DNA of 58,128 nucleotides from a bacterium (GTDB lineage Bacteria; Chloroflexota; Dormibacteria; Aeolococcales; Aeolococcaceae): NCBI GenBank assembly GCA_021803465.1, contig JAJZLL010000041.1, positions 66 to 58,193 on the forward strand. Direction: 5' to 3'. The notes under the pieces are model-generated. The model was not told the origin of the DNA, made no database searches, and saw only the letters and a list, made by a program, of their open reading frames with translations. Below are positions 11,509 to 58,128 of the stretch, in pieces (the stretch's first letter is position 1; the number at the start of each line of letters is the position of its first letter). The position numbers and the translations under genes are program-made.

Positions 11509-11865
11509 TTGGAGCGATGCATTCGGAAGTCGACAATTGGCAACGCCATTGTCACGCGGAGCGATCCGTACCAGCCGACTGGTTGCGCTCTGAGCCGTTC
11601 ACTCATGGTTGCTGCGGACCTTATCGAGGGAGAGCAGATCCATCTGCTCAACCAGCAGACGCGCGCATCAGTGGTGACCCATGTCATTGAGGGAGATCCT
11701 GGCGAGGTGGCTGTTCTCGGAGAGCTTGCTGGCTTTGCAGCAGTTGGTGACTCCCTTTCCATGGAATCGTACGCATGGGTGAGTGATGACGAGTGGGATG
11801 TGTTCCAGCCTCGGAACCTCCATCTCGACACGACAAATGGTGTTGTGGAGACACCGGTTTCATAA
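11509..11865 (+). CDS. aspartate 1-decarboxylase (PanD)-like protein lacking the Gly-Ser autocleavage site
   Basis: TTG start after GGAGGGG; colinear with PanD along its length (KS.I..A.VT, AADLIEGEQI, T.VIEG, GD....SYA), but positions 24-26 read TGC instead of GSC/GSI. Confidence 0.8.
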   Translation: MERCIRKSTIGNAIVTRSDPYQPTGCALSRSLMVAADLIEGEQIHLLNQQTRASVVTHVIEGDPGEVAVLGELAGFAAVGDSLSMESYAWVSDDEWDVFQPRNLHLDTTNGVVETPVS

Positions 11866-11935
11866 ATGCCAGTTCACGTTGGAAGCAATTGTTGGTAGGG
11901 TTTTTCGCGCAAGCGCGATTTGGGGAGGAGCGACA

Positions 11936-12814
11936 TTGTCCACTACAGCAGTATCCGCACTTGAGTCTTTGACAGAATCTTTGTCTCCTGAGGTGGTCGA
12001 TGCAGCCATCGACCGTGCCCTCAGTGAGGATGTTGGCCCGGGGGATGTGACAACCGATGCCATCGTCCCTGAGGACATGACCTGTCGGGGCAAGGTGGTC
12101 TGTCTGCAGGATGGTGTCGTTGCTGGCCTGCCTGTCATGGAGCGTGTGTTCTCCTACGTTGATGAGAAGCTCCAGTTTGATGGCAAGGTTGCTGATGGGG
12201 AGAAGGTTCAGGAGGAGCAGATCGTCGCAAGGATGTTCGGCCCAGCGCGCAGCATGCTCAAGGCGCAGCGGGTTGCAATGAACTTCTTCCAGCACCTGAG
12301 TGGCATTGCCACCATGACTGCCAAGTATGTGAAGGCTGTCGAGAACACGAGCGCATCCATCATCACGACCCGCAAGACGACACCTGGGCTCAGGAGCCTT
12401 GAGCTGTATGCTGCTCGCATGGGAGGAGCCTCCAGCATCAGGATGGGACTGTATGATGCCGTCGTAATCCGTGACAGTCACCTGGTCCTCTCAAGCGGAG
12501 TTGGATCTCCACTCCGCACGCTTAGGAAGATGTATCCAGAGCGGGAAATCACGGTTGAAGTGACAAACATGCAGGAACTGGAGCATGCACTGACTGAGAA
12601 GGCCACATGGATCATCCTCAGCAACTTCGCTCCAGGACAGGTCAGGCAGGCAATGCAGATCATCCGTGGACAGGCAACCGTTGAAGTCTCGGGGCCCATT
12701 CCACCAGCAGGTGCACGTGCATACGCGCTCGCAGGAGTGGATTACATCAATGTTGGGGCACTCGTCCATGGTGCAACTGCGCTTGAGATGACCATGAAGT
12801 TGAGCCGCTACTAG
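11936..12814 (+). CDS. quinolinate phosphoribosyltransferase (NadC/ModD)-like protein with altered active site
   Basis: TTG start after GGAGGAG; ALSED..GDVTT, LSGIAT, TRKTTPGLR, GVDYI.VGAL.H; but SIR for NHR, RDSH for KDNH, ILSN for MLDN. Confidence 0.85.
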   Translation: MSTTAVSALESLTESLSPEVVDAAIDRALSEDVGPGDVTTDAIVPEDMTCRGKVVCLQDGVVAGLPVMERVFSYVDEKLQFDGKVADGEKVQEEQIVARMFGPARSMLKAQRVAMNFFQHLSGIATMTAKYVKAVENTSASIITTRKTTPGLRSLELYAARMGGASSIRMGLYDAVVIRDSHLVLSSGVGSPLRTLRKMYPEREITVEVTNMQELEHALTEKATWIILSNFAPGQVRQAMQIIRGQATVEVSGPIPPAGARAYALAGVDYINVGALVHGATALEMTMKLSRY

Positions 12815-12843
12815 GCCTCCAGGCGTCGTCTTTGGGAAGTTGC

Positions 12844-13449
12844 ATGAAATCCAAAGTACCCACATTTAGGGGCTCTGCGTGGGCAGTACAGCAGTACGGA
12901 GCATATGTTCGCCACACCGCGAAGCTGGTGCGCCCGGGTGAGTGGTGTGTCGAGCGACTCCGTGCACGCGGCCTCTGCGCACTGGATGGCTGGATGCTTC
13001 CCATGAATCCACCAGCATGGAACCGTGCCGAGGAGCAATACAGGAACGCTCACGGATTCCGTGCAAGGACTCGGGCTGCAGCTCAGTGCGCAGTGTCATA
13101 CGCAGGTTATGGCATGTTTGGCGCACTGGCCTCTCTCGGTGCTGCAGCACTTGTGCTCCTGGGCATGGCTGCTTGGGCAACTGCTGCTGTCCTGCCTCTC
13201 CCGGTGCTCGCTGTGGCTGGTGCGGCTGAAGGCGTGCACCAGCTCCACGCCCATGCTCTTGGTGGGGCCGCACCGAAGGACAGCTCAGTGACGGAGACGC
13301 AGGGACGAAACCATGATCAGCTCCAGATTGCGCCCTTGGAACGAGAACACAGGATGGCGAACCTCAGTGGGAGGGGCAGCAAAGGCATGAGAGACCATCG
13401 CTCCCGTGTCATCCTCAGGGGTCGTGGAGATCAGTCCATAGATCTCTGA
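12844..13449 (+). CDS. hypothetical protein with central hydrophobic segment
   Basis: ORF 12832..13449 fills the gap between the nadC-like gene and phhA on the same strand; Ala/Leu-rich TM-like stretch; no family recognised. Confidence 0.45.
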   Translation: MKSKVPTFRGSAWAVQQYGAYVRHTAKLVRPGEWCVERLRARGLCALDGWMLPMNPPAWNRAEEQYRNAHGFRARTRAAAQCAVSYAGYGMFGALASLGAAALVLLGMAAWATAAVLPLPVLAVAGAAEGVHQLHAHALGGAAPKDSSVTETQGRNHDQLQIAPLEREHRMANLSGRGSKGMRDHRSRVILRGRGDQSIDL

Positions 13450-13556
13450 AGTTGCTCCCCGGGCAGGAGTTACGATACGGTGTCCTCATTGGAACTCCAG
13501 TGTGAGTTGCGCGATAATGAGTGCGTCCGGTTGGCCCTGGGGGAATGCGGCATATC

Positions 13557-14453
13557 ATGGCATCGAAGAGCGGGTATTCACCTGTTGTAGCATCAGCGGA
13601 TGGTTCAGTCGTCGTGCAGTTGTCCGACGATCATCCAGGTTTCGCTGATCCCGCATACCGTGCACGGCGCAATGAGATCGCATCACTCTCCATTGGACAT
13701 GCTCCAGGGGAACCCATTCCCCATGTCATGTACACCGATGTTGAGCATGGCGTTTGGAAGATCGTCTCGACAGAGCTTGTGCCGAAGCATGACAAGTACG
13801 CCTGTGCAGCATATCTCGAGGGAAAGGAGGCGCTCCAGCTTCCTTCGGACCACATTCCCCAGCTTGATGAAGTGACAAGCCATCTCACTCCCATAACGGG
13901 ATTCCAGTATCAGCCAGTGGCTGGGCTTGCTCCCCTCAGGGAGTTCTACAGTTCCTTCGCCAGCCACATGTTCTTCTCCACACAGTACATCAGGCACCAT
14001 TCCGTTCCGCTGTACACACCGGAACCTGACATCATCCACGAGGTGATTGGCCACGCCAACCAGCTCTCCAACGACAGGTTCGCAGCAATTTATGACGAAG
14101 TGGGGAAGGCAGTGCTGCGCACAAAGACGCGTGAGGCGCTCGAGTTTCTCTCCAGGGTATTCTGGTTCACAATGGAATTCGGCGTCATTTATGAAGATGG
14201 CCAACCGAAGGCCTACGGGGCTGGTATCCTCTCGTCTTTCGGGGAGCTCGACGTGTTCCAGAAGGCAAGGATACGTCCCCTGGACTTTCAGGAGATGGGG
14301 ATGATGGAGTATGACATTACCCACTATCAGCCACTTCTCTATTCAGTCGCATCCATGGATGAGCTGTACGACCGCCTGATGGCGTTCTACTCAACCTATG
14401 ACGACTCCACCTATGCAGCGCTGACCAAGGGCATACCATCGACCGAGGAGTAG
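13557..14453 (+). CDS. phhA: phenylalanine 4-monooxygenase (biopterin-dependent aromatic amino acid hydroxylase)
   Basis: DHPGFADPAYRARR, TQYIRH, YTPEPDIIHEVIGH (Fe-binding His pair), FWFTMEFG (Glu ligand), KAYGAGILSSFGE. Confidence 0.93.
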   Translation: MASKSGYSPVVASADGSVVVQLSDDHPGFADPAYRARRNEIASLSIGHAPGEPIPHVMYTDVEHGVWKIVSTELVPKHDKYACAAYLEGKEALQLPSDHIPQLDEVTSHLTPITGFQYQPVAGLAPLREFYSSFASHMFFSTQYIRHHSVPLYTPEPDIIHEVIGHANQLSNDRFAAIYDEVGKAVLRTKTREALEFLSRVFWFTMEFGVIYEDGQPKAYGAGILSSFGELDVFQKARIRPLDFQEMGMMEYDITHYQPLLYSVASMDELYDRLMAFYSTYDDSTYAALTKGIPSTEE

Positions 14454-14462
14454 CCCAAGCTG

Positions 14463-14915
14463 CTACCAGCTTTCGAGGGCATTGACGATTTCTTCCTCGA
14501 TCCAGCCAAGCACCATGAGCATCCGGTACTCCGACTCATGTTCCTTCTCAAGGGTTTCGTCTGCGCTCCAGGATTCGTCAGTAATACCCATCTCTGATGC
14601 AGCAACATGGCGGAGAATGTTGAGGACACGGATGAGCATGAGGGCATCTTCATCTGTGAGCTCTAGGGGAGGCGTGGACTGGGCGAAGATGGAAGCCACA
14701 CGCTCGATCTCAGTGGCCCGGGTTGCAGCGAGTGCAGGAGTGACCCACTTTTCATACTCCTCCTGTAGCTCAGGATCCGCATATGCTCCGCTTGGAGGCT
14801 CCCACGATTTGCCAAGCTTCCTTGCAAGATGCTGGATGATCGAGTAGATCGCCATCTGCTCATCATGGTCAATGGTGAGCCGGATGCGTCCCTCTCGTCG
14901 TTGAATGGATGCCAC
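14463..14915 (-). CDS. DUF2017-like protein (clpS-associated)
   Basis: Directly downstream of clpS; AY.D....EY, LN..R....GIT and LGW.EE patterns typical of this family. Confidence 0.7.
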   Translation of the reverse strand: MASIQRREGRIRLTIDHDEQMAIYSIIQHLARKLGKSWEPPSGAYADPELQEEYEKWVTPALAATRATEIERVASIFAQSTPPLELTDEDALMLIRVLNILRHVAASEMGITDESWSADETLEKEHESEYRMLMVLGWIEEEIVNALESW

Positions 14916-14924
14916 GATCGTCCG

Positions 14925-15218
14925 TTACGCGCGTGCCAGCGTTGCCTGGAGACCAAAGGCATGGAGCCGTGCCACTGACACCTCAGCCTGCTCCCGGGGC
15001 TGGGTGGCGACAACAGCCTTGCCCTCGTTGTGCACCTGAAGCATGAGGGTGGTGGCTGTGGCCTGGTCGAAGCCGAAGAGACGCCGAAAGACGAGCACGA
15101 CATAGCTCATGAGAGTGACGGGATCATTCCAGACAACGACATGCCAGCCATGTTCATGCTGTCTGGCATGTGCGGGGGAGTTCGTGGTTGCTGGTTTCTG
15201 CTCAATGACTGTTGCCAT
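14925..15218 (-). CDS. clpS: ATP-dependent Clp protease adaptor ClpS
   Basis: WHVVVWNDPVTLMSYV, MLQVHNEGKAVV, REQAE, LHAFGLQAT; GAGGA before ATG 15218. Confidence 0.95.
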   Translation of the reverse strand: MATVIEQKPATTNSPAHARQHEHGWHVVVWNDPVTLMSYVVLVFRRLFGFDQATATTLMLQVHNEGKAVVATQPREQAEVSVARLHAFGLQATLARA

Positions 15219-15302
15219 GTCCTCTGTCTCCTGCCGATATCGTATCATGCTGCAGAATGGGTCACCAGCAGATCCGGAAGGGCGTGGAGAGGCTGCGAGG
15301 AA

Positions 15303-15515
15303 TCACTGGGTCATGGGGGACGACTTCTGGGGGAAGTCAATGATGGCTCCCCACGCCTGCGATACTGCGGTCGGAACCGGATCGGGGAAGGAGAGGACAG
15401 CCTGGAGAGGCATTTCGCAACGATGGCAAACGATCCAGATCGGTCCAGGTTCGGAGATCGGACGTTCTAGGAGATGTTTAGCGCCGCATTCTTCACAGGT
15501 GATAGTGATTCTCAT
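15303..15515 (-). CDS. small zinc-ribbon-like protein (70 aa)
   Basis: CEEC-x19-CHRC; GGTGAG upstream; same strand as clpS. Confidence 0.6.
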   Translation of the reverse strand: MRITITCEECGAKHLLERPISEPGPIWIVCHRCEMPLQAVLSFPDPVPTAVSQAWGAIIDFPQKSSPMTQ

Positions 15516-15716
15516 AGCTCACCAAGCGTCTCATGCAACCCGTGACGTCGGACTGACGACATGTTATGGTCCTGTAACGATCCCTCCCCGGTTGTGTGAA
15601 TGGGCCGGAAATGCAGATCGCGGGCCAGTTGAGCGATGATAGATGAAAGCGCTTTCCGCCCTTGAATGCGCCACTTACCAACCAACATGGGCATGGACAA
15701 AAGGAGTCTCCGACTC

Positions 15717-16940: not shown

Positions 16941-17053
16941 CTTCTCTCACATCTCTATGCCAAGATGTCTGCGAGATGATTCACTTCGAGAAACGGTGGG
17001 CATAATTGCTGTAGGCGCATGAAGGTGCGTGTGGCAGCGTAGGAGGTTCCATA

Positions 17054-19582: not shown

Positions 19583-19588
19583 TGCCCT

Positions 19589-27787: not shown

Positions 27788-28873
27788 ATGACTGAGGCAA
27801 CTGGGTGGATGCTGACACCAAAACGCCTTCTTGCGCTTGGGGTCCTTGTGGTGGTGCTGAGTCTCCTCGCAGGAGGAGGCAGCGCCTGGGTGATCGCAAA
27901 TGCCTCTTCGGGAAGCCCAGTGCAGTACTTCGGTGCGACAACCTCACAGAACTCTTCAAGCGCAGGCACACTTGTGCCGTCAAGTGTCACGCAGGCAGAG
28001 GCTTCCGTTGTCACCATTGAGACCCAGCCACAGACCCTCCAGATGTTCCTCAGCGGAAACACTTCGGGGATTGTGCATGGTTTCATTGCCACAGACAGCG
28101 GCATAGTCATCACCTCAAGTTCCGCAGTGTACGGGGCCACCATGCTTCGCGTCATCACCACAGCTGGCCAGTCATACGATGCAACGCTTCTCGCCACGGA
28201 TGCGAGTGCAGGCATCGTCGCACTCCAGCTGTCCACTACTCCCACTGCAGTGCCTCTTGGCATTGCTGGCCAGGCTGCCGCATCAGGCACTGCAGGGTAT
28301 GTGCTGTACCCATCCGAAGCGCAGTCGCAGGTGACAGCTGTTGGGGCAGTGCAGACAGTCGGGGAGCAGGAAAGCTTCCATGGCCAGTCAGTCAGCGGTG
28401 TGGGCGTGCTTGGTACGCAGACACTTGGAACTGCTGATGGTGTTCCTGTTCTGGACAGTGCAGGAAACGTGCTGGGTGTCGTGTTTGCCAATTTTGATGC
28501 ACCGACAATCGGTGCAGGGCTGCCCTTTGTCGGAAGTGGTGTGCTTGCACATTTCATCAATTCTCTCAATGGATCGGGAGCGCAGCAGAGCGCATCGTTC
28601 GGAACGACTTCCGTTCCCGTTACGCCCACCCTGGGTGCCCTTCTGGATCTCCCCTCCGGAGCGCTCATCACTTCAGTGGAAGCAAGCGGATGTGGAGCAG
28701 CTGCTGGACTCCATGTTGGCGATGTTGTCCAGTCAGTGAACGGCGTGGACATTGGCGGGCCAGTACTGTTCGATGCTGCGCGGCTCGGACTCGCACCTGG
28801 CTCGACAGCAAACATCAGATTTGTGCGGGAAGGCGCTTTGCAGCAGGCATCATGCGTGGTGAACACGCAATAG
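27788..28873 (+). CDS. membrane-anchored HtrA/DegP-like (trypsin-like + PDZ) protein lacking the catalytic triad
   Basis: N-terminal TM; SVVTI, GFI....G.VITSSSAV, ATLLATD...GIVALQL, ADGVPVLDSAGNVLGV; PDZ GALITSV...AAAGLHVGDVV.SVNG. Confidence 0.82.
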   Translation: MTEATGWMLTPKRLLALGVLVVVLSLLAGGGSAWVIANASSGSPVQYFGATTSQNSSSAGTLVPSSVTQAEASVVTIETQPQTLQMFLSGNTSGIVHGFIATDSGIVITSSSAVYGATMLRVITTAGQSYDATLLATDASAGIVALQLSTTPTAVPLGIAGQAAASGTAGYVLYPSEAQSQVTAVGAVQTVGEQESFHGQSVSGVGVLGTQTLGTADGVPVLDSAGNVLGVVFANFDAPTIGAGLPFVGSGVLAHFINSLNGSGAQQSASFGTTSVPVTPTLGALLDLPSGALITSVEASGCGAAAGLHVGDVVQSVNGVDIGGPVLFDAARLGLAPGSTANIRFVREGALQQASCVVNTQ

Positions 28874-28883: not shown

Positions 28884-29504
28884 ATGGAGATCGCGTATTA
28901 CGGCATGGGCTGTTTTCGCCTCAAGGGGAAGGAGCACAATGTTGTCCTCGATGTGACGGATGATCTCGTGCGAAAGCAGGTGACGAAGTCGGGTACCGTG
29001 TTCTTCGTCGATACAGATGGTCACTGCGATCCTGCAGCTCTGCGCAACCAGGAGGCTGGCACGCAGAGAGTGAGTGGAGCAGGAGAATTCGAAATAGGAG
29101 GAACTGAAGTCAAGGGCATCGCCTATGGTGGAACTACAGCAATGCTCGTGACGATCGATGATGTCCGATGCCTCACTCTTGGCGCTGCGGACAGCATTCC
29201 CGATGATGCAGTCATTGATGCCATTGGTCATGTGGATGTGCTCTTCATTCCCACAGGCGGCCATTCTGTCCTCGATGCGCCAGCTGCAGTGAGTGCCATC
29301 AGGGCAATCGAGCCAGCTGTCGTCATACCCATGCACTACCGGGCAGAGTCCGTTCCTGGGAGTGACGGCTACGATGAGCTTGATCATTTCTGCAAGGAGT
29401 TCGGACTTGAGGATGTGAATGCACTTGCGAAGGTGTCCATCTCTCCGAGTTCATCGCAGGAGGACGATGGTTCCACTGCAGTGATTCTCGAACCCCAGAG
29501 GTAG
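28884..29504 (+). CDS. MBL-fold (Lactamase_B_3-like) protein with degenerate metal motifs
   Basis: MEI.YYG..CFRLKGK, GAGEFEIGG, VDVLFIPTGG, IEP.VVIPMHY; HxHxDH replaced by DTDGH. GGAGG SD. Confidence 0.8.
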   Translation: MEIAYYGMGCFRLKGKEHNVVLDVTDDLVRKQVTKSGTVFFVDTDGHCDPAALRNQEAGTQRVSGAGEFEIGGTEVKGIAYGGTTAMLVTIDDVRCLTLGAADSIPDDAVIDAIGHVDVLFIPTGGHSVLDAPAAVSAIRAIEPAVVIPMHYRAESVPGSDGYDELDHFCKEFGLEDVNALAKVSISPSSSQEDDGSTAVILEPQR

Positions 29505-29569: not shown

Positions 29570-31240
29570 ATGCCCAAGATCATCTTTGTGACAGGCGGCG
29601 TTGTCTCGTCCCTTGGCAAGGGCATCACTGCTGCGTCCATTGGAGCACTCCTCAAGGCGCGGGGACTCACTGTGAGCATGCAGAAGCTCGATCCCTACCT
29701 CAATGTTGACCCTGGGACGATGTCCCCCTACCAGCACGGCGAGGTGTTCGTGACTGATGATGGTGCTGAGACGGATCTCGATCTAGGACATTACGAGCGC
29801 TTTGTCGATGTGGCACTCACGAAACTCAGCAATGTCACTTCGGGAAAGATCTATGCTGCAGTGCTCGCGAAGGAGCGGAAGGGAGAGTATCTCGGTGGCA
29901 CAGTCCAGGTCATTCCCCACGTGACCAATGAGATCAAGGAGCGCATCCAGCTTGTTGCAAAGCAGGGCAATCCCGCACCGGATGTCGTCATCGTTGAAGT
30001 TGGAGGCACAGTGGGCGACATCGAGTCGCTTCCTTTTCTCGAGGCCATCCGCCAGCTGAAGAATGACATTGGCAGAGAGAACGTCTGCTATGTCCATCTC
30101 ACGCTTGTGCCATACATCAGCACAAGCGAGGAGTTCAAGAGCAAGCCTACGCAGCACAGTGTCAACGAACTCAGGAGCATTGGCATCCAGCCAGACATCA
30201 TTGTCGCGCGAAGCACGACTGCGATAGACGATTCCATCAGGGAGAAGATCGCACTCTTTGGCGATGTGGAAAAGCGTGCTGTCATCAATGTTCCCGATGC
30301 GCGTTCCATCTACCATGTTCCCCTCATGCTCAAGGAGGCTGGGCTCGATACGTTCCTTGTGGAGCATCTCCATCTTCCGGAGGGAACGACTGACATCACC
30401 AACTGGGTGCAGCTCTGCGAGCGGATTGACCACCACGACACCACAGTCCGCATTGGCATCGTGGGAAAGTATGTGGCGCTTCCCGATGCCTATGTGAGCG
30501 TGACGGAATCACTCAGGCATGCGTCTCTTGCAGCAGGAGTGGATCTCGACATCGTCTGGGTGAGTGCGGAAGATGTGGAGAAAGGAGCGTTCGATCTTGG
30601 AACGCTCGATGGCATCGTTGTTCCGGGAGGCTTTGATGGCCGAGGTGTGGAAGGGAAGATTGCAGCTTCCCGGTTCGCCCGGCATCATGGGCTTCCATAC
30701 CTTGGCCTGTGCCTTGGGATGCAGTGCGCAGTCATCGACATCGCGCGGGAAGCGCTGGAGGCACCGGACGCGAACTCCACTGAGTTTGACTCTGAGACAG
30801 GCAATCCTGTCATAGATCTCCTGCCAGAGCAGAAGACCATCTCGGACAAGGGAGGCACGATGCGCCTGGGAGCGTACCCTTGCCACCTCGTACCCGGGAG
30901 CCATGCGGCAGAAGCCTACAGCACTGATGTGGTGTATGAGCGCCATCGGCACCGGTACGAATTCAACAATGCGTACAGGAAGGCACTGGAAGAGGCGGGA
31001 GTCGTAATGAGTGGGCTTTCTCCAAATGGCAATCTTGTCGAGATCATTGAACTGCCTGCACATCCATTCTTCCTTGGCACGCAGTTCCATCCTGAGTTTC
31101 GTTCCCGGCCACATCGGCCCCATCCGCTCTTTCGCGCATTCATCGATGCAGCGAACGTTCGTGAGCATGAACGCACTGGGGATGCTGGTTCACAAACTGG
31201 ACACGGTAAACCTGAACGGACGGCAACTCGGAAGGCATGA
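29570..31240 (+). CDS. pyrG: CTP synthase
   Basis: [53 protein letters not shown]. Confidence 0.98.
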
Positions 31241-32241
31241 CCCAGACACACACATACGCGCGACGGCGACGCATCCAGCGGGAGATCCATCGGGGACTGG
31301 AACTTGTCAGAGCAACGGAGTCAGCTGCGCTCACAGTGGGAAGGTGGCTTGGCCGTGGTGACAAGGTGGGGACCCGCGAGGGCTCCCAGCAGGCAATGTC
31401 AGACGCGCTTGAGGCAATGACCTTTGATGGCAGGATCGTGATAGGTGTCGATGATCCTGCGAGCCTTCTCCAGGTGGGACGCCATGTGGGCACAGGGCGG
31501 GAGCAGCTGGATCTCGCACTCCTTCCAGTGGATGGGATAAGCCTTGTGACAAATGGCTTCAGCCAGGCGCTGAGCATCGCAGTGAGCACGGAGTCAGGAG
31601 GCATACCAGCACCTCTTCCTGTGGCGTACATGGAGAAGATCGCAGTTGGGCCACAGGCACGGGGTGCCATCGACATTCTCGACACGCCAGAGAACAATCT
31701 CCGACGCATAGCATTCGCAATGGACATGCCCCTCCAGGATGTGACGGTTGTCATGCTGGACAGGCCGCGGCATGAACCACTCCTCCAGCGTGTCAGGGAA
31801 GTTGGTGTCAGGGTGGCACTCATCAGTGATGGAGATGTTGGAGCTGCAATGATGGCTGCGTGGCCAGGGAGTGGTATCCATGTGCTCATGGGGAGTGGTG
31901 GAACGAAGGAGGCAATACTCGCTGCCTGTGCGCTCCGATGCCTTGGGGGAGAACTCCAGTGCAAGCCGTGGGTCCGGCATGAGGAGGAGGCAGCTGCACT
32001 GCGCCATGTGAATCTGGATCCTGAAGGTGTCATTACAATGCATGACCTTGTGCCAGCAGGGGACATCTCCGTTGCTGTGACAGGAGTGACAGGGGGAGGG
32101 ATTCTCAAGGGTGTCCAGTACCATGACTGGTGGGCGGAGTCACACAGCCTGGTCATGCGGCTCAAGAGTGGCACGATCCGGGAGATCCGCACCCGGCACC
32201 ACTACGCCTCAATGCCTGAGCACAAGCAGCGCATCAACTGA
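31237..32241 (+). CDS. class II fructose-1,6-bisphosphatase (GlpX)-like protein lacking several metal/catalytic residues
   Basis: [12 protein letters not shown]...[49 protein letters not shown]; but IGVDD for IGEGE and LLPVDGI for VDPxEGT. Confidence 0.88.
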
Positions 32242-32364: not shown

Positions 32365-33192
32365 TTAGGAGAGACCCTCGCCACCAGTCACTGGAGCTGC
32401 AGGGCTTGCATCCTGCCAGCCATCAGTTCCCTTGGTAGCCGCGTTCGGTGACTTTGATGCCTTCTCGGCACTGCGCCTTGCAGCTTCGACTGAAGGGATG
32501 GGCCGTCCAGGATAGTATCCACGGTACCCATGGTCCTTCTCAGCAGCGCTTCGCGCATTGGAGATACCGAAATCGACAGTATCGATGAGTCCAAACTCCT
32601 TGGCTTCTTCCGCTGACATCCAGTTGTCACGGTCAATGGCCCTGCGGTACTCCTCGGGTGTCTTTCCAGTGTGGAAGGCCATGAGGTTGACCATCTCGTC
32701 TTCCGTATGCTCCATCTCCTTCACCTGGGTCCTGATGTCCGCGATGTTGCCACCAGCTCCAGCAGACAGGTTGTGGATCATGATCCGTGCATTTGGCTTT
32801 GCGGAGCGCTTGTCGCCAGCTGCAAGCAGGATTGCGGCCATAGAAGCTGCCTCTCCAGTGCACACGGTATGAATCTGCGACCTGCAGGATTTCATCACCT
32901 CATAGATCGTCATGCCAGCTGTGACACTGCCACCACCTGAGTTGATGATGAGGGTGATGGGCTCAGAACCCATCTGGTCAAGAACCATGAGCTCATGGCG
33001 GATCATGAAGGCACTACCAGCAGTGATGGGACCATCAAGGGTGATGATCCTCTTCTCGAAGAGGTAGGTGACAGGATCAATGCCAACTGCACGTCCTGTG
33101 TCGTCCTTGCGAATGACGGTTGGGAACATGTACGAGGACATGTTCGGCTCTTGCGTCTCTTCGACCTCTGCTTGGTTGACGTTCTTCGCCAT
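32365..33192 (-). CDS. clpP: ATP-dependent Clp protease proteolytic subunit with N- and C-terminal extensions
   Basis: RII.L.G.I, INSGGGSV.AG, AASMAA (Ser), RIMIH (His), DRDNWMSAEEAKEFGLID (Asp); GAGGGG before ATG 33192. Confidence 0.93.
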   Translation of the reverse strand: MAKNVNQAEVEETQEPNMSSYMFPTVIRKDDTGRAVGIDPVTYLFEKRIITLDGPITAGSAFMIRHELMVLDQMGSEPITLIINSGGGSVTAGMTIYEVMKSCRSQIHTVCTGEAASMAAILLAAGDKRSAKPNARIMIHNLSAGAGGNIADIRTQVKEMEHTEDEMVNLMAFHTGKTPEEYRRAIDRDNWMSAEEAKEFGLIDTVDFGISNARSAAEKDHGYRGYYPGRPIPSVEAARRSAEKASKSPNAATKGTDGWQDASPAAPVTGGEGLS

Positions 33193-33246
33193 CAAGACCC
33201 CCCTCGTATTCATCTGACTTCGTTAGACTATATGATCAACTCGGAC

Positions 33247-37790: not shown

Positions 37791-38396
37791 ATGGGTCAGG
37801 CACCCCTCTTTACAACGATTGATGCAGCGCATGCCCTTGCAGAGGGAGCTGTGCTTGCCATACCGACGGATACGGTATATGGACTGGCATGCGATCCCTC
37901 CAATGCGGCCGCTGTGGAAAGGATCTATGCCATCAAGGGGCGGCCAGCCTCGCTTGAGCTCACCATCATGGGCAGCAGCTGGAAAGACGTGCTGGCTGTG
38001 TGCTCTCCAACCCATGAGGCGGAGATCCTTGCAGCAGCATTCCTTCCTGGTCCCCTTGCGCTCGTGCTTCCTGTCCGGGTGCCACGCGCATACGTTGTCC
38101 CGCGTTCGGGTTCGACAGTCGCTGTGCGGGTGCCGGACCACGAAGTGATCCGCGATCTGTGCGGACATGCTGGCCTTCTTGCAACGACGAGCGCAAACCC
38201 CCATGGAGTGCCAGCTGCACAGTCGGTTGAGGAAGTGCATGAACATCTGGGAGACAGCATTGATGGGGTGCTTGCTGGAGCGTGCGCATTTGGCATGGCA
38301 TCAACTATCATTGATTGCACAGGCAACCCCGTGAACTTGCTGAGGACGGGACCGATTCCGTTTGAGGACATTCGCGCAGTGATTGCGGAGGCGTGA
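37791..38396 (+). CDS. tsaC: L-threonylcarbamoyladenylate synthase (TsaC/YrdC)
   Basis: [36 protein letters not shown]. Confidence 0.93.
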
Positions 38397-38436
38397 CTGT
38401 GGAAAATGGACTGCACGTCCCACGTGGAGGAGAATG

Positions 38437-39737
38437 ATGACACCGCGAGGAACTGCAGAAGAGGGGAGCACATCAGTGCTCGCCACAACACCATCCCTTG
38501 AGCGGGTATTCGCTGCCGATCCGGAAACTGCAGGGCTCATGGAACGGGAGCTTGTGCGTCAGGAGACCACCCTCGAGCTCATTCCTTCCGAGAACATCGC
38601 CTCGCCAGCAGTGCTGCAGGCACTGGGATCATGGCTCAACAACAAGTATGCCGAAGGCGTTCCCGGGAAGCGGTACTACGGTGGATGCGAGATTGTGGAT
38701 CAGGTGGAGGACCTTGCTCGCAAGCGGGCATGCGAACTCTTTGGCGCAGACCATGCGAATGTCCAGCCACATTCTGGATCCAATGCCAACATGGCTGTGT
38801 ACCAGGCGCTGCTTGAGCCGGGAGACCGTGTGCTGGGCATGGCTCTTGACCATGGAGGCCATCTCTCCCATGGATCGCCCGTGAATTTCTCTGGCAAGCA
38901 CTACGATTTCCATTCGTACACCGTGTCTGAGCGCACTGGAAGGATCGAGTACGATGAGGTCCGCGCAGTCGCGCTCGCGGTGCGACCGAAGCTCATCGTT
39001 GCTGGCTACAGCGCCTATCCACGCACACTCGACTGGGCTGCGTTCAAGGACATCGCCCAGGAGGTGGGGGCACGGCTCATGGTTGACATGGCGCATGTGG
39101 CTGGACTAGTCGCAGGTGGGGTGCATCCAAGTCCTGTGCCGCATGCGGATGTGGTGACGATGACCACGCACAAGACGCTCCGTGGTCCGTGGGGAGGACT
39201 CATCCTCTGCCGCGAGGAGCTTGCCAGGCGATTGACAAGGCCGTCTGTCCTGGAACCCAGGGTGGTCCACATCTCCATGCGATTGCTGCGAAGGCAGTCA
39301 TGCTCCACCAGTGCATGCAGCCATCATTCCGTGACTATGCGGCTGCCGTTGTCGCAAATGCGCAGGCACTCGCTGATGCGCTCACCTCATGTGGTGCGAC
39401 CCTCGTCACTGGTGGTACGGACAACCATCTCATGCTCATCGATCTCCGGCCGCTTGGCATCGGGGGACGCCGTGTGCAGCAGGTGTGCGATTCCGTAGGC
39501 ATCACACTCAATGCGAACACGTTCCCATATCACGGTGGGACACCCTTCAATCCCAATGGCATCCGCCTTGGCACTCCGTCAGTGACATCGAGGGGGATGG
39601 GCACAGGCGAGATGCGCACCATAGCAGAACTCCTCTGGAGCCTTCTCAGCAATCTCGAGGATCCTGGTGTGCACGAGACGGTGCAGCATGCGACAAGGGA
39701 ACTGTGCAGGGCATTCCCCCTTCCGTATCGGAGCTGA
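38437..39737 (+). pseudogene. glyA: serine hydroxymethyltransferase split by a 1-nt frameshift near 39225 (true lesion or sequence error)
   Basis: First frame: [35 protein letters not shown]; second frame (ORF 39189..39737): AIDKAV.PG.QGGP, GGTDNHL, GIRLGT. GAG CTT GCC AGG CG ATT GAC lacks one base. Confidence 0.9.
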
Positions 39738-47666: not shown

Positions 47667-47685
47667 CCCAGCACAAGGAGCAGTC

Positions 47686-49186: not shown

Positions 49187-49401
49187 CCCCATATAGCTGA
49201 AGCGTACTGACAGACCTGTTCGAAGAGCATTCCTTCCTTCGTGCATTCTCCGTATCTTGCTACACATTTCTGGTCTGAAGCTTCCAGTGCAGATCCGTAG
49301 TCTTCATGCATGATCCAGTGGCCGATGTGCTCCGTGTATGTGGGTGCAAGAAGCTCCAATGGCTGTCATTCCTTCTGAAGGCTGACTGTCCCGAGGTGCT
49401 G

Positions 49402-49436
49402 GGTACAGAAATAGCTCATATGACATCTTCTGTACC
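49402..49436. promoter_or_regulatory. 35-bp imperfect palindrome upstream of the lectin gene
   Basis: GGTACAGAA-atagc-TCATATGA-catc-TTCTGTACC; TATACT follows at 49457-49462. Confidence 0.45.
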
Positions 49437-49509
49437 GAGGCAGCAAGGGATGTCTGTATACTTACATCCACTGCCGTTTGGATGGCAATCGCTGATAGGG
49501 GATTGAACT

Positions 49510-52503: not shown

Positions 52504-52578
52504 ATGACGGATCACACCACCACTGCAAAGTGAGCACAGTGGCTGGTCAACAGTGTGCCATTTGACTCTGGCTGGAAT

Positions 52579-52895
52579 GGTGCTCTGTGCAGAAAGGTGA
52601 TTGCGGTCGTCAATGCGAAATTTGTGCGTGCTGCCCATCTTTCAGGAAATCGCGGGCATGTCTTGCCCAACTGTGACGAGGCGACCATAAGCTGCCTGCT
52701 CAACATCGGATGCGACGGCGTATTCACGTACTGCCTGAAGCTCCTCAGAGGGGTGCTGAATGCACGTGCCATGGGGATCGAACCGAAATACCTGGGATGG
52801 AAAGGCAGACTGATTGTGAACATCATGAACCTGTCGGACACTGGAAGAGACACATGAAACAGCAGACAAGGAGATGCGCTCACCTGGAGTGAGCA
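52579..52895 (+). pseudogene. degenerate fragment of the GDPD 3' end (copy 2 of the direct repeat)
   Basis: Translates RKVIAVVNAKFVRAAHLSGNRGHVLPNCDEATISCLLNIGCDGVFT...EPK versus RKGIGVVNAKFVRAAHLSGLRVHVWTINDESTMNYLLDIGCDGIFT...EPK; no N-terminal catalytic part. Confidence 0.88.
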
Positions 52896-52995
52896 CAACT
52901 AGTGCTGCAGAGTTCTAGGAGGGGGTGACTCTGATGTCACAACTGTGCAGTGCCACGTGTCAGGCACCAGTATCTGAAGGGATAATGCGATAGAG

Positions 52996-54759
52996 ATGAA
53001 ACTATTCCATCCCAAGTTCAGAATGGTGTGCTGCTTTCTCATCGCACTTGGCGCGATCCTGTGCGACGCTCTCCCTGCAGCCGCTCTGTCTCCCATTGGA
53101 ACGAGTGGCTTTGAGATTACGACAGCAGCGGGAAATGGCACTGCGGGATTTCTTGGCGACAGTTCAGCAGCCACTTCTGCTGAGCTGGACAATCCATATG
53201 GAGTGGCAATCGATGCGCATGGAAACATCATCATCGCCGATTACCTCAACAACCGGATCCGCGTTCTTGCTGAAGCTACGGGCACGTTCTATCAACAGCC
53301 GATGGTGGCAGGCGACATCTACACGATCGCGGGAAATGGAACTGCTGGCTTTCAGGGTGATGGAGCTGCAGCAACTGCTGCGGAGCTGAACAATCCCAGG
53401 GGAGTCTATGTGGATGCATCAGGAGACATCCTTGTAGGAGACTACTTGAACAATCGCGTACGGGTGATCGCGGAGTCAACTGGTTCACACTATGGCCAGG
53501 CAATGACAGCAGGAGACATCTACACGATAGCCGGGAACGGAACGGGGGGATTTTCTGGAGATGGTGGGGCAGCAACAGCAGCAGAGCTTGTGAATCCTGT
53601 TGGTCTCGCAATTGATCCAAATGGAAATGTCGTAATTGCAGATGTGGGCAACAACCGTATTCGGGTAATTGCCGAATCGTCAGGCACGTTTTACCAGCAG
53701 GCAATGACAGCAGGCGACATCTACACGGTTGCAGGAGATGCAACCCAGGGGTATACGGGCACAGGAGGTCCGGCCACATCAGCTGAACTGTACTGGCCCC
53801 ACGATGTCCATGTTGACAGCAGTGGAAATCTTGTGATTGCTGACACGTACAACAATGTCATCCGTGTTGTTGCTGAATCGACTGGCACATATTATGGGCA
53901 GTCCATGACTGTGGGAGACATCTACACCATTGCGGGAAACGGCACTGCAGGATTTCTCGGCGATGGTGGTGCAGCAACATCAGCAGAGTTTGACACAATC
54001 TACAGCATTGCGTTCGATGCAGAAGGCAACATTCTCCTCACAGATGCCACGAACAACAGGATACGTGTCCTTGCTGAGTCGACTGGGATGATGTACGGCA
54101 TGCCGATGACTGCTGGGGACGTTTACACCATAGCGGGAGACGGCACAGCGGGGTTTGCGGGGGACGGAGGTGCTCCAGTCTCTGCCGAGCTGAATCTGCC
54201 TACTGGTCTCGTGACCAATTCTGCAGGGGATGTATTCATAGCGGACATTTACAACAACAGGATCCGCGAACTTCTTCCAACAGAGTCGTTGCAGGCGAGT
54301 GCAGCCATTGGTGCAGGAACACTGAGTTTTGTTTCCGCACCAGGGAATGTCACGTTTACCACTGCAACACTCACAGGAACGGACCAGACTGCCACAGCAT
54401 CGGAGACGCTCGATATCGGCGACAATACAGGGTCTGGTTCAGGCTGGAATGTCACGCTCTCCAATTCGGCATTCACTAGCGGCACGCACACGCTTCCCAG
54501 TGCAGATTTCACGGCAGCCACACCTGGCGTGCCCTCGTGTGACTCGGGTGTCTCCTGCTCAGCAGCCACCTGGTCAGCAAACGTTGCATATCCCTATGCG
54601 CTGCCAGGTGCCACAGCAACGAAGCTCCTTTCCGCATCGGCCACCACGGGCCGTGGTGACCAGACAGTCATCATTGCATGGAGCGAGAAGATTCCTGCTG
54701 CTGCATACACTGGCACGTACAGTTCCACCTGGACATTGACACTCGTGTCCGGGCCGTAA
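52996..54759 (+). CDS. secreted NHL-repeat (six-blade) protein with C-terminal WxL-like domain; paralog of 7655..9433
   Basis: Signal peptide; six ~67-aa repeats; DIGDNTGSGSGWNVTLSN, ATATKLLSA, GTYSSTWTLTLVSGP. Confidence 0.88.
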   Translation: MKLFHPKFRMVCCFLIALGAILCDALPAAALSPIGTSGFEITTAAGNGTAGFLGDSSAATSAELDNPYGVAIDAHGNIIIADYLNNRIRVLAEATGTFYQQPMVAGDIYTIAGNGTAGFQGDGAAATAAELNNPRGVYVDASGDILVGDYLNNRVRVIAESTGSHYGQAMTAGDIYTIAGNGTGGFSGDGGAATAAELVNPVGLAIDPNGNVVIADVGNNRIRVIAESSGTFYQQAMTAGDIYTVAGDATQGYTGTGGPATSAELYWPHDVHVDSSGNLVIADTYNNVIRVVAESTGTYYGQSMTVGDIYTIAGNGTAGFLGDGGAATSAEFDTIYSIAFDAEGNILLTDATNNRIRVLAESTGMMYGMPMTAGDVYTIAGDGTAGFAGDGGAPVSAELNLPTGLVTNSAGDVFIADIYNNRIRELLPTESLQASAAIGAGTLSFVSAPGNVTFTTATLTGTDQTATASETLDIGDNTGSGSGWNVTLSNSAFTSGTHTLPSADFTAATPGVPSCDSGVSCSAATWSANVAYPYALPGATATKLLSASATTGRGDQTVIIAWSEKIPAAAYTGTYSSTWTLTLVSGP

Positions 54760-54795
54760 GTCCGGGAAGTCAGTTCTTCTGCATCTCCCTGCAGA

Positions 54796-55872
54796 TCAGG
54801 CGACTGTCACCTCGGGATTGAGGTAGACGTCCTGGATTGCATGGAGCAGCTCGATGCCTTCCGCCATTGGCCGTTGGAACGCCTTTCTTCCGCTGATGAG
54901 TCCCATGCCGCCTGCCCGCTTGTTGATGACAGCAGTGCGCACTGCCTCAGCGAGGTCACCACTTCCTGTCGAAGCACCGCCTGAGTTGATGAGGCCGGAA
55001 CGGCCCATGTAGCAGTTCACGACCTGGTACCGTGTGAGATCAATGGGATGAGGGGTAGTGAGCTCGGAATACACTTTCGGGGAGGTTTTACCGAACTTGA
55101 GCGCTGTGTAGCCGCCGTTCGTCTCTGGTAGCTTCTGCTTGATGATGTCCGCCTGGATCGTGACTCCAAGGTGGTTTGCCTGGCCTGTGAGGTCGGCAGC
55201 GAGATGGTAGTCGACTCCATCGTGGTTGAACGCGGGATTGCGCAGGTAGCACCAGAGAATGGTTGCCATTCCGAGATCGTGGGCCATGGCGAACGCCTGG
55301 GAGACTTCCTGAAGCTGTCGGGTCGACTCGTCGGAGCCGAAGTAGATCGTTGCTCCGACAGCGACTGCACCCATGTCGTACGCCTGTTCGACAGAGGCGA
55401 ACATCACCTGGTCGAACCTGTTCGGATATGTGAGGAGCTCATTGTGGTTGAGCTTGCAGATGAAGGGAATGCGGTGGGCATACTTCCGGGCGACTGATCC
55501 AAGCACACCAAGCGTTGAGGCAACAGCGTTGCAGCCCCCCTCGAGGGCGAGCTCGACGATCGCCTCACTGTCAAAGTAGCGGGGTTCAGGCGCGAACGAT
55601 GCGCCTGCACTGTGCTCAATGCCCTGGTCAACAGGGAGGATGGAGAGATAGCCCGTTCCCGCAAGCCTGCCTGTGCCAAAGAGGGTCTGGAGGCTGCGGA
55701 GCACACGGATCGAGCGGTCCGATGCGGACCAGATCCGGTCAACGAACTCCGGTCCAGGAAGATGGAGAAGTGCCTTGTCAACTGTCGTGCATGAGTGTGT
55801 GAGAAGATCCGATGCATCAGTGCCGAGAAGGGCCTCAATGTCGGATGTTGTGCGGCTTGCTGTGGCAGTCAT
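54796..55872 (-). CDS. fbaB: class I fructose-bisphosphate aldolase (FbaB/DhnA type)
   Basis: [30 protein letters not shown] (Schiff-base Lys), [17 protein letters not shown]; start ATG 55872. Confidence 0.95.
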
Positions 55873-55979
55873 GGTGGATTCCTTCCCTGTGGTCCACATG
55901 ACAGTGGACGTTCCGGAGTCATTATGCTCATGATATACACCAGGCGCCAGGTGGGGCAGGGAGACATGCGGAGGGCAGA

Positions 55980-57290
55980 ATGGGCGAGCTGACAATCGAG
56001 GGCGGTACTCCGCTGCACGGAGATGTCGCCATGTCCGGGAGCAAGAATGCTGCTCTTCCCATCATGGCAGCAGCACTTCTCACGGACGAGCCTGTTGCGC
56101 TCACCAATGTGCCCAACATACGGGACATTGAGATCCTGGCTGATATTCTCACCTCGCTTGGATGCGTTGTGGAAAGGACTGCACAGGATGCCTGGACTAT
56201 CGAAGCACGCAACCTCACATCCGCAACAGTTGGCCATGAGCTTGCTGAGCGGATACGTGGCTCCATTCTCCTCATGGGAGCACTTGTGGGGAGGCTCGGC
56301 GAGGCAGTTGTGGCAAAGCCTGGGGGAGACGATATTGGTGTCCGCAGAGTTGAGCAGCACATTGAGGGTCTCCGCATGATGGGAGCAGAGGTGCAGACTC
56401 ACGAGCGGGAATATGTCGTTCGCGCGAACAGGCTTCGTGGCGCCTGGATTGAGCTTGACATGCCCACAGTCACTGGCACAGAGAACCTCATGATGGCCGC
56501 AACATGCGCTGAGGGTGTCACCATCATCCAGAATGCTGCACGAGAGCCCCATGTGGTGGATCTTGCAAGGTGCCTTGCCGGCATGGGTGTGCGCATCCAG
56601 GGGGCTGGCACTGACCACATCATGATCGAGGGCGTGAAGGGTCGTCCTCACGGGACACGGCATGCTGTCGTTGCGGACTACATCGAGGCGGGTACATATC
56701 TCATCGCAGCTGCAGCAACCAGGGGCAATGTCACTGTCACAGCGACTGATCCTGCTGACCTCACCTGGCTCATCAAGAAGCTTCGGGAAGTGGGGTGCGA
56801 TGTTGTGCAGGGCGCTGACCACGTGCGGGTCAGTGCGGCTGGACATGTGCTCCGTGGTGTGGATGTCACAACCTGGCCCCATCCGGGCTTCGCCACGGAT
56901 CTTCAGGCCCAATACGTCTCACTCATGACACAGGCAGAGGGCACGAGCGCTGTGAGCGAGGCAGTCTATGAGCACCGGTTCCGCCATGTTCCCGAACTTG
57001 TGAAAATGGGAGCCAAGGTGAATGTCGAGGGCCGGAGCGCCATTGTTACTGGACCGACAGTACTCAAGGGTAGTCCCGTGGACATCACGGACATCCGGAG
57101 TGGTGCAGCGCTCACCATAGCAGCACTGTGTGCAGAAGGGACGAGCACCCTCTCGAATGTCTTCCACCTCCACCGGGGGTACGAGTCGTTCGAGGAGAAG
57201 CTCCAGTCCCTTGGGGCGCGCATCAGCTTGTCGGATGCTGGGGATACGACGGATGTTGCTGGACGGATGCGGTCAGTCATTGGCGACTGA
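55980..57290 (+). CDS. murA: UDP-N-acetylglucosamine 1-carboxyvinyltransferase, Asp-type active site
   Basis: [50 protein letters not shown]. Confidence 0.96.
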
Positions 57291-57316
57291 TTCCGGAAAG
57301 CCCAACGTGGGAATGC

Positions 57317-58128
57317 ATGGCCATGCTTGGTAGGAAGGTGGGAATTGCGATCGAGGGTGAGACCATCCGAACCTGCACAAGGCTTGGGGGAAGGGTTGTC
57401 AGCATACCCGCCTGCATTGCACGGAGTGCGCGTCTTGGGAGTGCACGTCACTATGTGGGAGAGGATGCGCTTGCCCGTCATGCGCAGGATCCGGAGACAT
57501 GGGAGATCCACTGGCCACTTCTTGGCACAGAACATCATGACAAGGATGGAGTGTACCAGCTTCTCCGGGAAGTGGTCATCCGCATGCTCGGCAGGGGACG
57601 GGTGTTCCGTCCAGAAGTCATCTGCGCAGTGGATCCAGAGCTCAGTGGCACTGCGAGAAGGCAGTTGCTGCAGGTGTTTTCCTCCTTTGGAACACGCACT
57701 GCATATCTTGTGGACCTTCCTGTCGCACACATGCTGGCCCTCCAGAAGTCGCACGCCCACCTGGGCCGATATGTCCTCCTTGACTGCAGCAAGCACCGCA
57801 TCGGCTGCTCTGTCATTGCTGACGGCTATGTCATCTCAGATGTCAGTCTGAGGGAGCGGATGGATTCACCTGCAGCTACTGAGCGGGAACCACTTCCAGA
57901 GGATACGCTGATTTCCCTGTTCGAAGAAGCGCAGGCCCGTGCGCCACGCGATGTGTGGGATGCGGCGTACACCCATGGTGTGGTGCTGACTGGAGCCTTG
58001 GCATCGAATCCCTCGGTGCAGCAGCGTGCATCTGCCCTTATGGGCACAGCCCTCCATGTCACAGCAGATCCGGAATTTCATGCAGTGCGGGGTGTCACGC
58101 AGGCGATAGACGACTGGAATGCGATCAA
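57317..58128 (+). CDS. MreB/Mbl-like actin-fold protein with degenerate ATP motifs and an internal deletion (runs off the window end)
   Basis: Manually translated, open to the end (270 codons): MAMLGRKVGIAIEG..., VGEDA, WPL, FRPEVICAV, AYLVDLPVA, VLLDCSKH, GVVLTGALA, LHVTADP..AVRG; colinear with MreB landmarks; follows murA. Confidence 0.8.
   Translation, partial: MAMLGRKVGIAIEGETIRTCTRLGGRVVSIPACIARSARLGSARHYVGEDALARHAQDPETWEIHWPLLGTEHHDKDGVYQLLREVVIRMLGRGRVFRPEVICAVDPELSGTARRQLLQVFSSFGTRTAYLVDLPVAHMLALQKSHAHLGRYVLLDCSKHRIGCSVIADGYVISDVSLRERMDSPAATEREPLPEDTLISLFEEAQARAPRDVWDAAYTHGVVLTGALASNPSVQQRASALMGTALHVTADPEFHAVRGVTQAIDDWNAI

Follow-up and report, generated by a model that had tools for sequence, protein, structure and literature searches.

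Six conserved homologs of housekeeping enzymes with lost or altered active sites in a small-genomed lineage of Candidatus Dormibacterota

Introduction

Why would a bacterium with a small genome keep, nearly unchanged, homologs of housekeeping enzymes whose active sites have been lost or altered? The question is raised by a 58,128-nucleotide stretch of DNA (the window; bases 66-58193 of contig C37) from a metagenome bin of a soil bacterium of Candidatus Dormibacterota, a small genome of 2.03 Mb in 73 contigs that is 91% complete. The window encodes homologs of PanD, NadC, HtrA, a Lactamase_B_3-type metallo-beta-lactamase (MBL), GlpX and MreB. An earlier note, made from the DNA letters, had proposed that all six lack their catalytic residues and belong to one lineage-wide repertoire of pseudoenzymes kept by selection, with relaxed selection on the way to gene loss as the alternative. 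Enzyme homologs that have lost catalysis have been studied thoroughly in eukaryotes but little in bacteria.

We followed the six genes through the genus of the source genome (g1; three species, G000, G001 and G002, with genomes of 1.9-2.0 Mb), its family (f1) and the sister family in the same order (f2). Residue states were taken from alignments to solved structures and orthologs. Tallies per genome include the unpublished genomes G004, G027, G032, G036, G041 and G050, whose sequences are in no alignment. We think it likely that the six are real protein-coding genes under purifying selection, that their ancestral chemistry has been lost or, in the NadC-like case, altered, and that they have three separate origins.

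Results

All six reading frames are free of stops and frameshifts, as the earlier note had said, with the MreB-like frame running off the window end. They are also open in every ortholog examined (20 GlpX-like, 17 HtrA-like, 17 MBL-like, 2 + 14 for PanD and NadC, and two MreB-like). Catalytic residues are clearly missing from five of the predicted proteins; the NadC-like protein, for which the same had been claimed, is only partly changed. The substitutions at catalytic positions are all fixed among the three g1 species, a point that the earlier note had proposed to check, and those of the NadC-like protein recur in a relative of 80% identity.

Nei-Gojobori counting against G001, applied to 41 open reading frames (ORFs) of the window, gave a dN of 0.024 for the GlpX-like gene (0.022-0.024 between species), 0.026 for the NadC-like gene and 0.027 for the PanD-like gene (0.011-0.027 between species), the 5th, 7th and 8th lowest of the 41. 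The HtrA-like (0.076), MBL-like (0.106) and MreB-like (0.186) genes rank 23rd, 26th and 37th. The corresponding dN/dS values are 0.012 (0.012-0.021), 0.028, 0.019 (0.010-0.019), 0.046, 0.080 and 0.114 (0.10-0.114); for comparison, FtsH has a dN of 0.020 and a dN/dS of 0.012, and PyrG 0.043 and 0.028. Between g1 species all six thus stay within 0.010-0.114, with pN far under pS, and two control ORFs that are out of frame or probably not genes reach 1.45 and 7.55, so the method separates coding from non-coding frames. The ratios are rough because dS is saturated between the three species (pS 0.54-0.70), but there is no doubt that pN and pS contrast. Synonymous sites in the PanD-like and NadC-like genes are free to change (pS 0.54-0.63), and an overlapping constraint is therefore not the cause of their conservation. 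In three unsaturated congeneric pairs from other genera (pS 0.07-0.47), pN/pS was 0.15, 0.025 and 0.03 for the GlpX-like gene, 0.10-0.50 for the HtrA-like gene and 0.06-0.20 for the MBL-like gene. The claim that selection keeps all six as proteins holds up on these values, and the combination of degenerate sites with sequences that evolution has left nearly unchanged makes new jobs for them probable.

The GlpX-like gene (31237-32241, plus strand) encodes 334 amino acids (aa), and its start overlaps the stop of pyrG. The protein matches PF03320 with 329 bits (cut-off 27) and scores 235.8 with the equivalog model TIGR00330, under the threshold of 259.3. Measured against the residues and roles listed in PMC5892879, the window protein is without the metal ligands Asp27, Glu51 and Asp79 and the catalytic Thr84. 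Among 21 GlpX-like sequences, Asp27, Glu51 and Thr84 are each found in 0/21 and Asp79 in 2/21, whereas the listed substrate (fructose-6-phosphate, F6P)-binding residues Asp82, Tyr114, Arg159, Arg161, Asp181, Asp183 and Glu208 are kept in 21/21. Canonical GlpX copies retain every listed residue (30/30). A similar state has been made in the laboratory: according to the abstract highlights of PMC5485559, the T84A mutant of Mycobacterium tuberculosis GlpX has no activity and an unchanged binding affinity. The GlpX-like protein, which keeps all residues that contact F6P, shares with that mutant the missing catalytic Thr. It differs as a second copy that occurs in nature and is conserved, and it is also without Asp27, Glu51 and, in 19/21 sequences, Asp79.

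Contig C54 of the same genome encodes a canonical GlpX (435 bits). A second, lower-scoring GlpX copy (319-356 bits) occurs in 22/25 f1 genomes and in 0/16 f2 genomes, and the second copies taken from 20 published genomes are all open frames of 322-337 aa. Identity to the window protein across genera is 55-70%, compared with 66-73% for PyrG. Searching 1.84 billion representatives returned one full-length cluster of this type, beyond which identity is <=45%. On the tree, the GlpX-like sequences form a monophyletic clade (support 0.99) whose sister is not the resident canonical one, and we rejected the idea that the gene is a recent duplicate or degenerate copy of the resident glpX on this ground. 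The clade is instead nested in a deep group of exclusively degenerate GlpX-like representatives (P0140, P0142, P0149, P0155, P0159, P0161, P0168, P0174, P0178, P0234 and P0242), most of which keep Arg159, Arg161, Asp181 and Asp183. Those of its members that carry a name are from bins of Dormibacteraceae, Deltaproteobacteria and Krumholzibacteria, and each is filed by its source as class II fructose-bisphosphatase (or fructose-1,6-bisphosphatase II). By these comparisons the GlpX-like gene is family-wide, an extra copy beside canonical GlpX and part of a cross-phylum clade.

Only pyrG is conserved in the neighborhood of the GlpX-like gene, which offers no functional lead. In g1 the two genes overlap by 4 bases (compared with loci L041, L045, L042 and L036), and in some genera (loci L041 and L045) a lipoprotein-like ORF of ~1.3 kb lies between them. 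A DegV-like ORF, named by eye from its sequence, is found downstream of the GlpX-like gene in other genera. A literature search pairing GlpX with pseudoenzyme found no paper; a broader search on pseudoenzymes returned nothing on these families among the matches listed, and one on Dormibacterota and auxotrophy nothing relevant among the matches listed.

The PanD-like gene (11509-11865, plus strand; 118 aa, TTG start) is an ortholog of the canonical panD of sister genera and holds its position downstream of ftsH. It matches PF02261 with 50.2 bits (cut-off 25) and reaches 41.2 with the equivalog model TIGR00223, under its cut-off of 106. Thirteen strictly conserved residues of aspartate decarboxylase (ADC) are listed in PMC3314653. 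In an alignment to PDB 2c45 and 14 orthologs, the PanD-like protein retains 3/13 of them (Thr57, Gly73 and Asn112) and is without Lys9, His11, Tyr22, Gly24-Ser25, Arg54, Tyr58, Ala74, Ala75 and Ile86. The self-cleavage site Gly24-Ser25, which gives rise to the pyruvoyl cofactor, reads Thr-Gly in 3/3 g1 sequences and Gly-Ser in 14/14 sister-genus orthologs. The predicted structure (pLDDT 93.3) is best matched by uncleaved, unprocessed PanD mutants (TM 0.91), and the double-psi beta-barrel fold is shared with the zymogen mutants PDB 1pqe (S25A), 1pqf (G24S) and 4azd (T57V) at TM 0.89-0.92. The difference from PanD is thus a natural loss of the cleavage site and of 10/13 strictly conserved residues, in a genome where panB and panC were not found either. 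Relative constraint is tighter than on the real PanD of sister genera: pN relative to PyrG is 0.6 for the PanD-like gene in g1, compared with 5.4, 3.2 and 1.8 for canonical PanD in three other genera. Database searches returned only two clusters of the PanD-like form, and a protein-cluster search with it returned only ordinary Asp_decarbox clusters.

The NadC-like gene follows at 11936-12814 (plus strand; 292 aa, TTG start) and is an ortholog of canonical nadC. The protein is a full-length, two-domain match to the equivalog model TIGR00078 with 259.5 bits, over the cut-off of 198.4. In M. tuberculosis NadC, alanine mutants of the quinolinate-binding residues Arg105, Arg139, Arg162, Lys172 and His175 are inactive (PMC4065032). 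Asp222 is a ribose contact (PMC3633916). Four of these five quinolinate-binding positions are kept in the NadC-like protein (Arg105, Arg139, Arg162 and His175) and Lys172 has become Arg, so that "dead" is not established for it. Further changes are His161 to Ile and the Glu before Arg105 to Gln. Of the ribose and phosphate contacts, Glu201 is retained and Asp222 is replaced by Ser; the Gly-Gly loop SGG reads SGP, with the loop numbering presumptively mapped by motif. Database searches yielded the NadC-like form in two clusters, 94% and 80% identical to it, after which identity drops to 66%; the 80%-identical relative carries the same substitutions with Leu instead of Ile at His161. NadC, a type II phosphoribosyltransferase, shares Arg105, Arg139-Lys140, Arg162, His175 and Glu201 with the NadC-like protein and differs in the changes at His161 (Ile/Leu), Lys172, Asp222 and SGG, which are fixed in the latter. 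The model of ModD, a relative of NadC, scores it at only 90.6, under the cut-off of 178.85. A predicted complex of the NadC-like and PanD-like proteins scored 0.00; the prediction gives no support and counts as evidence neither way.

The PanD-like and NadC-like stretch is free of indels in contigs from four metagenome runs of three studies, one of which spans it whole and the rest in part. One metagenome contig (run X3, record 5; 12290-12591) matches only short conserved parts of the NadC-like gene and has flanks that resemble canonical NadC, and a relative with a working enzyme may share the community. Directly 3' of the NadC-like gene lies an ORF of 205 aa (12832-13449) without a Pfam family. 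No other real-looking gene of the window evolves as fast; its identity within g1 is 57-58% and its dN/dS 0.15-0.19. Beyond it is a phenylalanine 4-monooxygenase (13521-14453; NF008877, 291 bits, cut-off 247), unusual company for the ftsH-clpC region.

The partners of both enzymes are deleted or were not found in g1. In 14/14 sister-genus loci the order is ftsH, panD, nadC, with canonical PanD and NadC residues, ~2.7 kb of extra DNA before panD and ~1.6 kb after it. In the one locus that was read (L059), the extra DNA encodes panB-panC and nadB, and NadB scores above its cut-off at the site after panD in G009 and G018. In all three g1 genomes, by contrast, ftsH (9520-11373, plus strand, intact) directly adjoins the PanD-like gene, which is followed by the NadC-like gene; panB and panC, which separate ftsH from panD in sister genera, and nadB have thus been deleted on the spot. 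No tblastn match to PanB or PanC was found in the source genome (91% complete), and PanC was found in 0/3 g1 genomes. NadA was found in 0/3 g1 genomes against 13/13 other f1 genomes, and NadB above its cut-off in 0/3 against 2/2 outside the genus. 3-hydroxyanthranilate dioxygenase (3-HAO) was found in 0/5 genomes, including 0/3 of g1, in a search whose control was weak. With neither nadA and nadB nor 3-HAO found, no known source of quinolinate turned up in the g1 genomes, which are 84-92% complete. A nicotinate phosphoribosyltransferase of the salvage route is present (484.7 bits, cut-off 330); the NadC-like protein as a replacement for nicotinate salvage was rejected because the genome has this enzyme above its cut-off. 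Where these pathways were lost elsewhere, panD or nadC was lost outright: G008 and G014 are without both PanC and PanD, and genus g25 has NadA in 0/4 and NadC in 0/6 genomes.

Profile scores for PanD are 121-144 bits in other f1 genera and 47-50 in the three g1 genomes, and those for the NadC C-terminal domain 168-198 and 135-145 bits, each gene being single copy in g1. Among the alignment columns that are invariant in sister genera, those changed in every g1 member number 16/35 in PanD, 23/132 in NadC and 14/278 in PyrG. The length of the g1 stem, in units of the median pairwise distance between other genera, is 2.14 for PanD, 1.10 for NadC and 0.61 for PyrG. Within g1, amino-acid identity is 95-97% for the PanD-like, 94-96% for the NadC-like protein and 93% for PyrG. 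These comparisons show a burst of change in the two genes and, after it, a freeze.

The HtrA-like gene (27788-28873, plus strand) encodes a protein of 361 aa with an N-terminal hydrophobic anchor, a degenerate trypsin-like domain and a C-terminal PDZ domain. Only the PDZ domain scores above threshold (PDZ_2 30.3 bits, cut-off 27; Trypsin_2 25.2, under 27.6). All three triad residues are replaced: His by Ser, Asp by Gly and, where an ADG stretch stands opposite the GNSGG motif, Ser by Ala/Asp. Read by eye across the order, the Ser position holds Asp, Glu or Val in 18/18 f1 sequences and Ser in 3/6 of f2, the Asp position holds Gly in 24/24, and the His is kept in 13/16 other f1 genera, 0/2 of g1 and 0/6 of f2. 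The protein shares a trypsin-like domain, a PDZ domain and a membrane anchor with HtrA/DegP and differs in that no order member examined has the full triad. A canonical HtrA with an intact triad is encoded on contig C31 of the same genome.

Next to it, the MBL-like gene (28884-29504, plus strand; 206 aa) matches PF13483 with 61.4 bits (cut-off 24) and has an incomplete set of metal-binding motifs. HxHxDH reads DxHxDP, the His of the third motif is gone, GD reads GA, and the last His is retained. Orthologs from 16 sister genera and six sister-family genomes have no His at the motif positions; the DxHxD and the late His (PMHY) set the g1 protein apart from them and are either a regain or a retention (loci L032-L051 and L101-L106). 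The gene is single copy in 59/61 order genomes. Its closest known counterparts are CPSF100 and IntS9, which are inactive MBL-fold partners in eukaryotes, and the Lactamase_B_3 proteins TM0207 and UPF0173. What it has in common with them is a match to the MBL fold family (PF13483; PDB 1vjn), with metal ligands missing. It differs in being bacterial, ~200 aa long, single copy and order-wide, and in adjoining the HtrA-like gene, and no active partner for it was identified. In 17/20 f1 loci and 6/6 f2 loci, the HtrA-like gene is followed by the MBL-like gene and then by pyrG; the other three f1 loci are cut by contig ends or do not extend over the region. PyrG, a CTP synthase (29570-31240, plus strand), is intact, and pyrG is a conserved neighbor of the GlpX-like gene as well as of the HtrA-like and MBL-like pair. 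That pair is order-wide, lying upstream of pyrG and degenerate in both families.

The MreB-like gene (57317-58128, plus strand; ~278 aa) lies directly after murA (55980-57290, plus strand; TIGR01072 512.6 bits, cut-off 392.7). A run of N from 58129 on cuts off its last ~8 codons, and the G001 and G002 orthologs end in KRAYVYIK. Family scores are low (PF06723 24.6 bits, under 27; NCBIfam 21.5, under 293), and homology rests instead on orthology with the syntenic MreB genes and on the fold. In each of three sister genera the protein is matched best by the syntenic MreB gene (29-34% identity); identity within g1 is 71-73%, at a length of 278-279 aa. Three nucleotide-binding motifs, which we take to be the phosphate-1, phosphate-2 and adenosine motifs of MreB, are all degenerate: the protein reads GIAIEGE, LDCSKHRIG and LTGALA where sister genera have a DLGT-like motif, DxGGGTTD and LTGGGA. 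In addition, ~50 residues of the actin/MreB fold are deleted. The structure predicted from a six-row alignment (pLDDT 72.8) is best matched by MreB structures at TM 0.76-0.80. Folds are thus retained in the predictions for two of the six proteins, PanD-like (TM 0.91) and MreB-like (TM 0.80). Syntenic MreB homologs of f1 genera score 143-260 bits, and copies of about 300 bits occur in f2 members and in three f1 genera; by profile score, neither kind of copy was found in g1. MreC was found in 0/5 family genomes searched. The gene thus shares with MreB/Mbl its position after murA, its orthology and its fold, and differs in the deletion, the degenerate motifs, the score under the PF06723 cut-off and the MreC that was not found. 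The PanD-like, NadC-like and MreB-like genes are true orthologs with genus-specific changes; in sister genera PanD and NadC are canonical and MreB is near-canonical. A class I fructose-bisphosphate aldolase (54796-55995, minus strand; 660.7 bits) adjoins murA and the MreB-like gene, and the canonical GlpX is on another contig (C54).

Neighboring enzymes of the window have their motifs intact. This had been claimed for FtsH, ClpC, ClpP, PyrG, the other MBL and the GATase and was found to be so, and UvrA can be added; the GDPD, which the earlier note also listed, is identified by its Pfam family match. The ClpP homolog (32365-33213, minus strand; 282 aa) apparently has its Ser, His and Asp and carries a long C-terminal tail. 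Its best NCBIfam ClpP score is 184.6, under 228, and it is under all ClpP cut-offs, so that it may be another divergent housekeeping homolog. The serine hydroxymethyltransferase gene glyA (38383-39737) carries a frameshift near 39,240 that breaks it in two, either an assembly error or a real lesion; the Pfam match of its first frame covers only profile positions 3-247 of 399, and glyA of G001 is one open frame. Two NHL-repeat proteins (7604-9433 and 52996-54759) are apparently related, and the second matches the G002 ortholog of the first at ~51% identity.

Discussion

What, then, are these six genes? We hold with high confidence that the PanD-like, GlpX-like and HtrA-like genes encode functional proteins that would no longer carry out the ancestral reaction, and with good confidence that the same would be true of the MBL-like and MreB-like genes. 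For the NadC-like protein the chances that it is a functional protein without its former reaction are no better than even. The single lineage-wide repertoire of the earlier note does not stand: two of the genes are order-wide, one is family-wide and three are genus-specific. Intact paralogs elsewhere in the genome, a possibility it had raised, were found for GlpX and HtrA, and none was found for PanD, NadC and MreB.

All new functions named here are ones that we infer. With its membrane anchor and PDZ domain kept and its triad gone, the HtrA-like protein would most likely serve outside the membrane as a chaperone, adaptor or sensor that binds proteins or peptides and leaves them uncut; protease-dead DegP still acts as a chaperone. 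The MBL-like protein would most likely be a non-metal scaffold paired with it. For the GlpX-like protein, the most likely role is that of a metabolite sensor or regulator that binds a sugar (bis)phosphate and does not hydrolyze it, possibly inside a GlpX-type tetramer. The MreB homolog of g1 has lost its nucleotide-binding motifs and evolves faster, with constraint remaining.

For PanD and NadC we envisage three steps. A genus undergoing genome reduction would first have lost the partner enzymes panB, panC, nadB and nadA. The orphaned PanD and NadC would then have gone through a burst of active-site substitutions. Finally, both would have been frozen in a new role, with constraint as tight as on FtsH or AtpD. 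The PanD-like protein would now most likely be an uncleaved, small beta-barrel module that binds a ligand or a protein, and the NadC-like protein a binder or an enzyme with changed specificity. A bolder version, which we offer tentatively and which may well prove wrong, would have the orphan PanD and NadC rebuilt for a new, possibly joint function and the GlpX-like proteins as cross-phylum look-alikes of fructose-bisphosphatase II that bind sugar phosphates without hydrolyzing them.

Some or all of the six could still be enzymes with a changed substrate or chemistry, which we consider unlikely. The NadC-like protein might be a phosphoribosyltransferase for another pyridine or aromatic acid, the g1 MBL-like protein a mono-metal hydrolase, and the GlpX-like protein a metal-independent or differently liganded phosphatase. 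Such a view draws on the residues that the NadC-like protein keeps (Arg105, Arg139-Lys140, Arg162, His175 and Glu201), its conservative changes and its score over the equivalog cut-off, as well as on the DxHxD and PMHY motifs that only the g1 MBL-like protein has. Tight constraint that centers on former active-site positions also fits a remodelled pocket no less than a dead one. This alternative is countered by the PanD-like protein, which is without the Ser that becomes the pyruvoyl cofactor and 10/13 strictly conserved residues, by the GlpX-like protein, which has lost three metal ligands and the Thr reported to give an inactive mutant when replaced by Ala, by the HtrA-like protein, where all three triad residues are gone, and by the search for a known quinolinate source for the NadC-like protein, which found none.

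Several points weigh against our preferred view of six conserved proteins with lost or altered chemistry. The NadC-like protein passes the NCBI equivalog threshold, its Lys to Arg and Asp to Ser changes are conservative, and it could still be a working phosphoribosyltransferase. The g1 MBL-like protein may bind metal, given its DxHxD and late His. The HtrA-like gene is loosely constrained, with pN/pS up to 0.50 in one congeneric pair. The PanD-like and NadC-like forms are known from three species and two database clusters only, a small and related sample. The genomes behind the absence counts are 84-92% complete, which limits any "not found", and dS saturation makes the dN/dS values rough. Finally, the stretch was found in DNA contigs only and in no RNA sequencing run.

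Relaxed selection, with genes heading to loss that have yet to acquire stops or frameshifts, is very improbable. The small g1 genomes, the loss of panB, panC, nadA and nadB and the fairly fast evolution of the MreB-like and HtrA-like genes would suit it, but dN/dS is low for all six and far from that of the out-of-frame ORFs, the PanD-like, NadC-like and GlpX-like genes are within the eight slowest of 41 ORFs, every ortholog examined has an intact ORF, and lineages that lost these pathways elsewhere (G008, G014 and g25) dropped panD or nadC outright. The earlier note's alternative is rejected on these grounds. An artefact of mis-assembly, wrong frames or misalignment has a negligible probability: the genome is a 73-contig bin with a frameshifted glyA in the same window, yet identical substitutions and matching sequences are seen again in the genomes of two other species, in independent database clusters and in contigs of runs from three studies, and the motif losses lie within ungapped, well-aligned blocks. 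Near-identical DNA is present in mine-drainage, tailings and sediment metagenomes of three studies.

Genus g1 presents a natural experiment. Its sister genera have working enzymes, and one genus lost the pathways yet retained two of their members, rewritten and under strong constraint, which makes the reuse of an orphaned enzyme directly testable. If the bolder version is true, PanD and NadC would show how orphan enzymes can, in nature, be recruited to a new, possibly joint function. The findings also point to an annotation problem. A degenerate GlpX-like clade spanning several phyla has the substrate site and not the catalytic machinery, yet is named class II fructose-bisphosphatase, and metabolic reconstructions from metagenome bins that count these GlpX-like proteins, or the panD and nadC of g1, as enzymes would be wrong.

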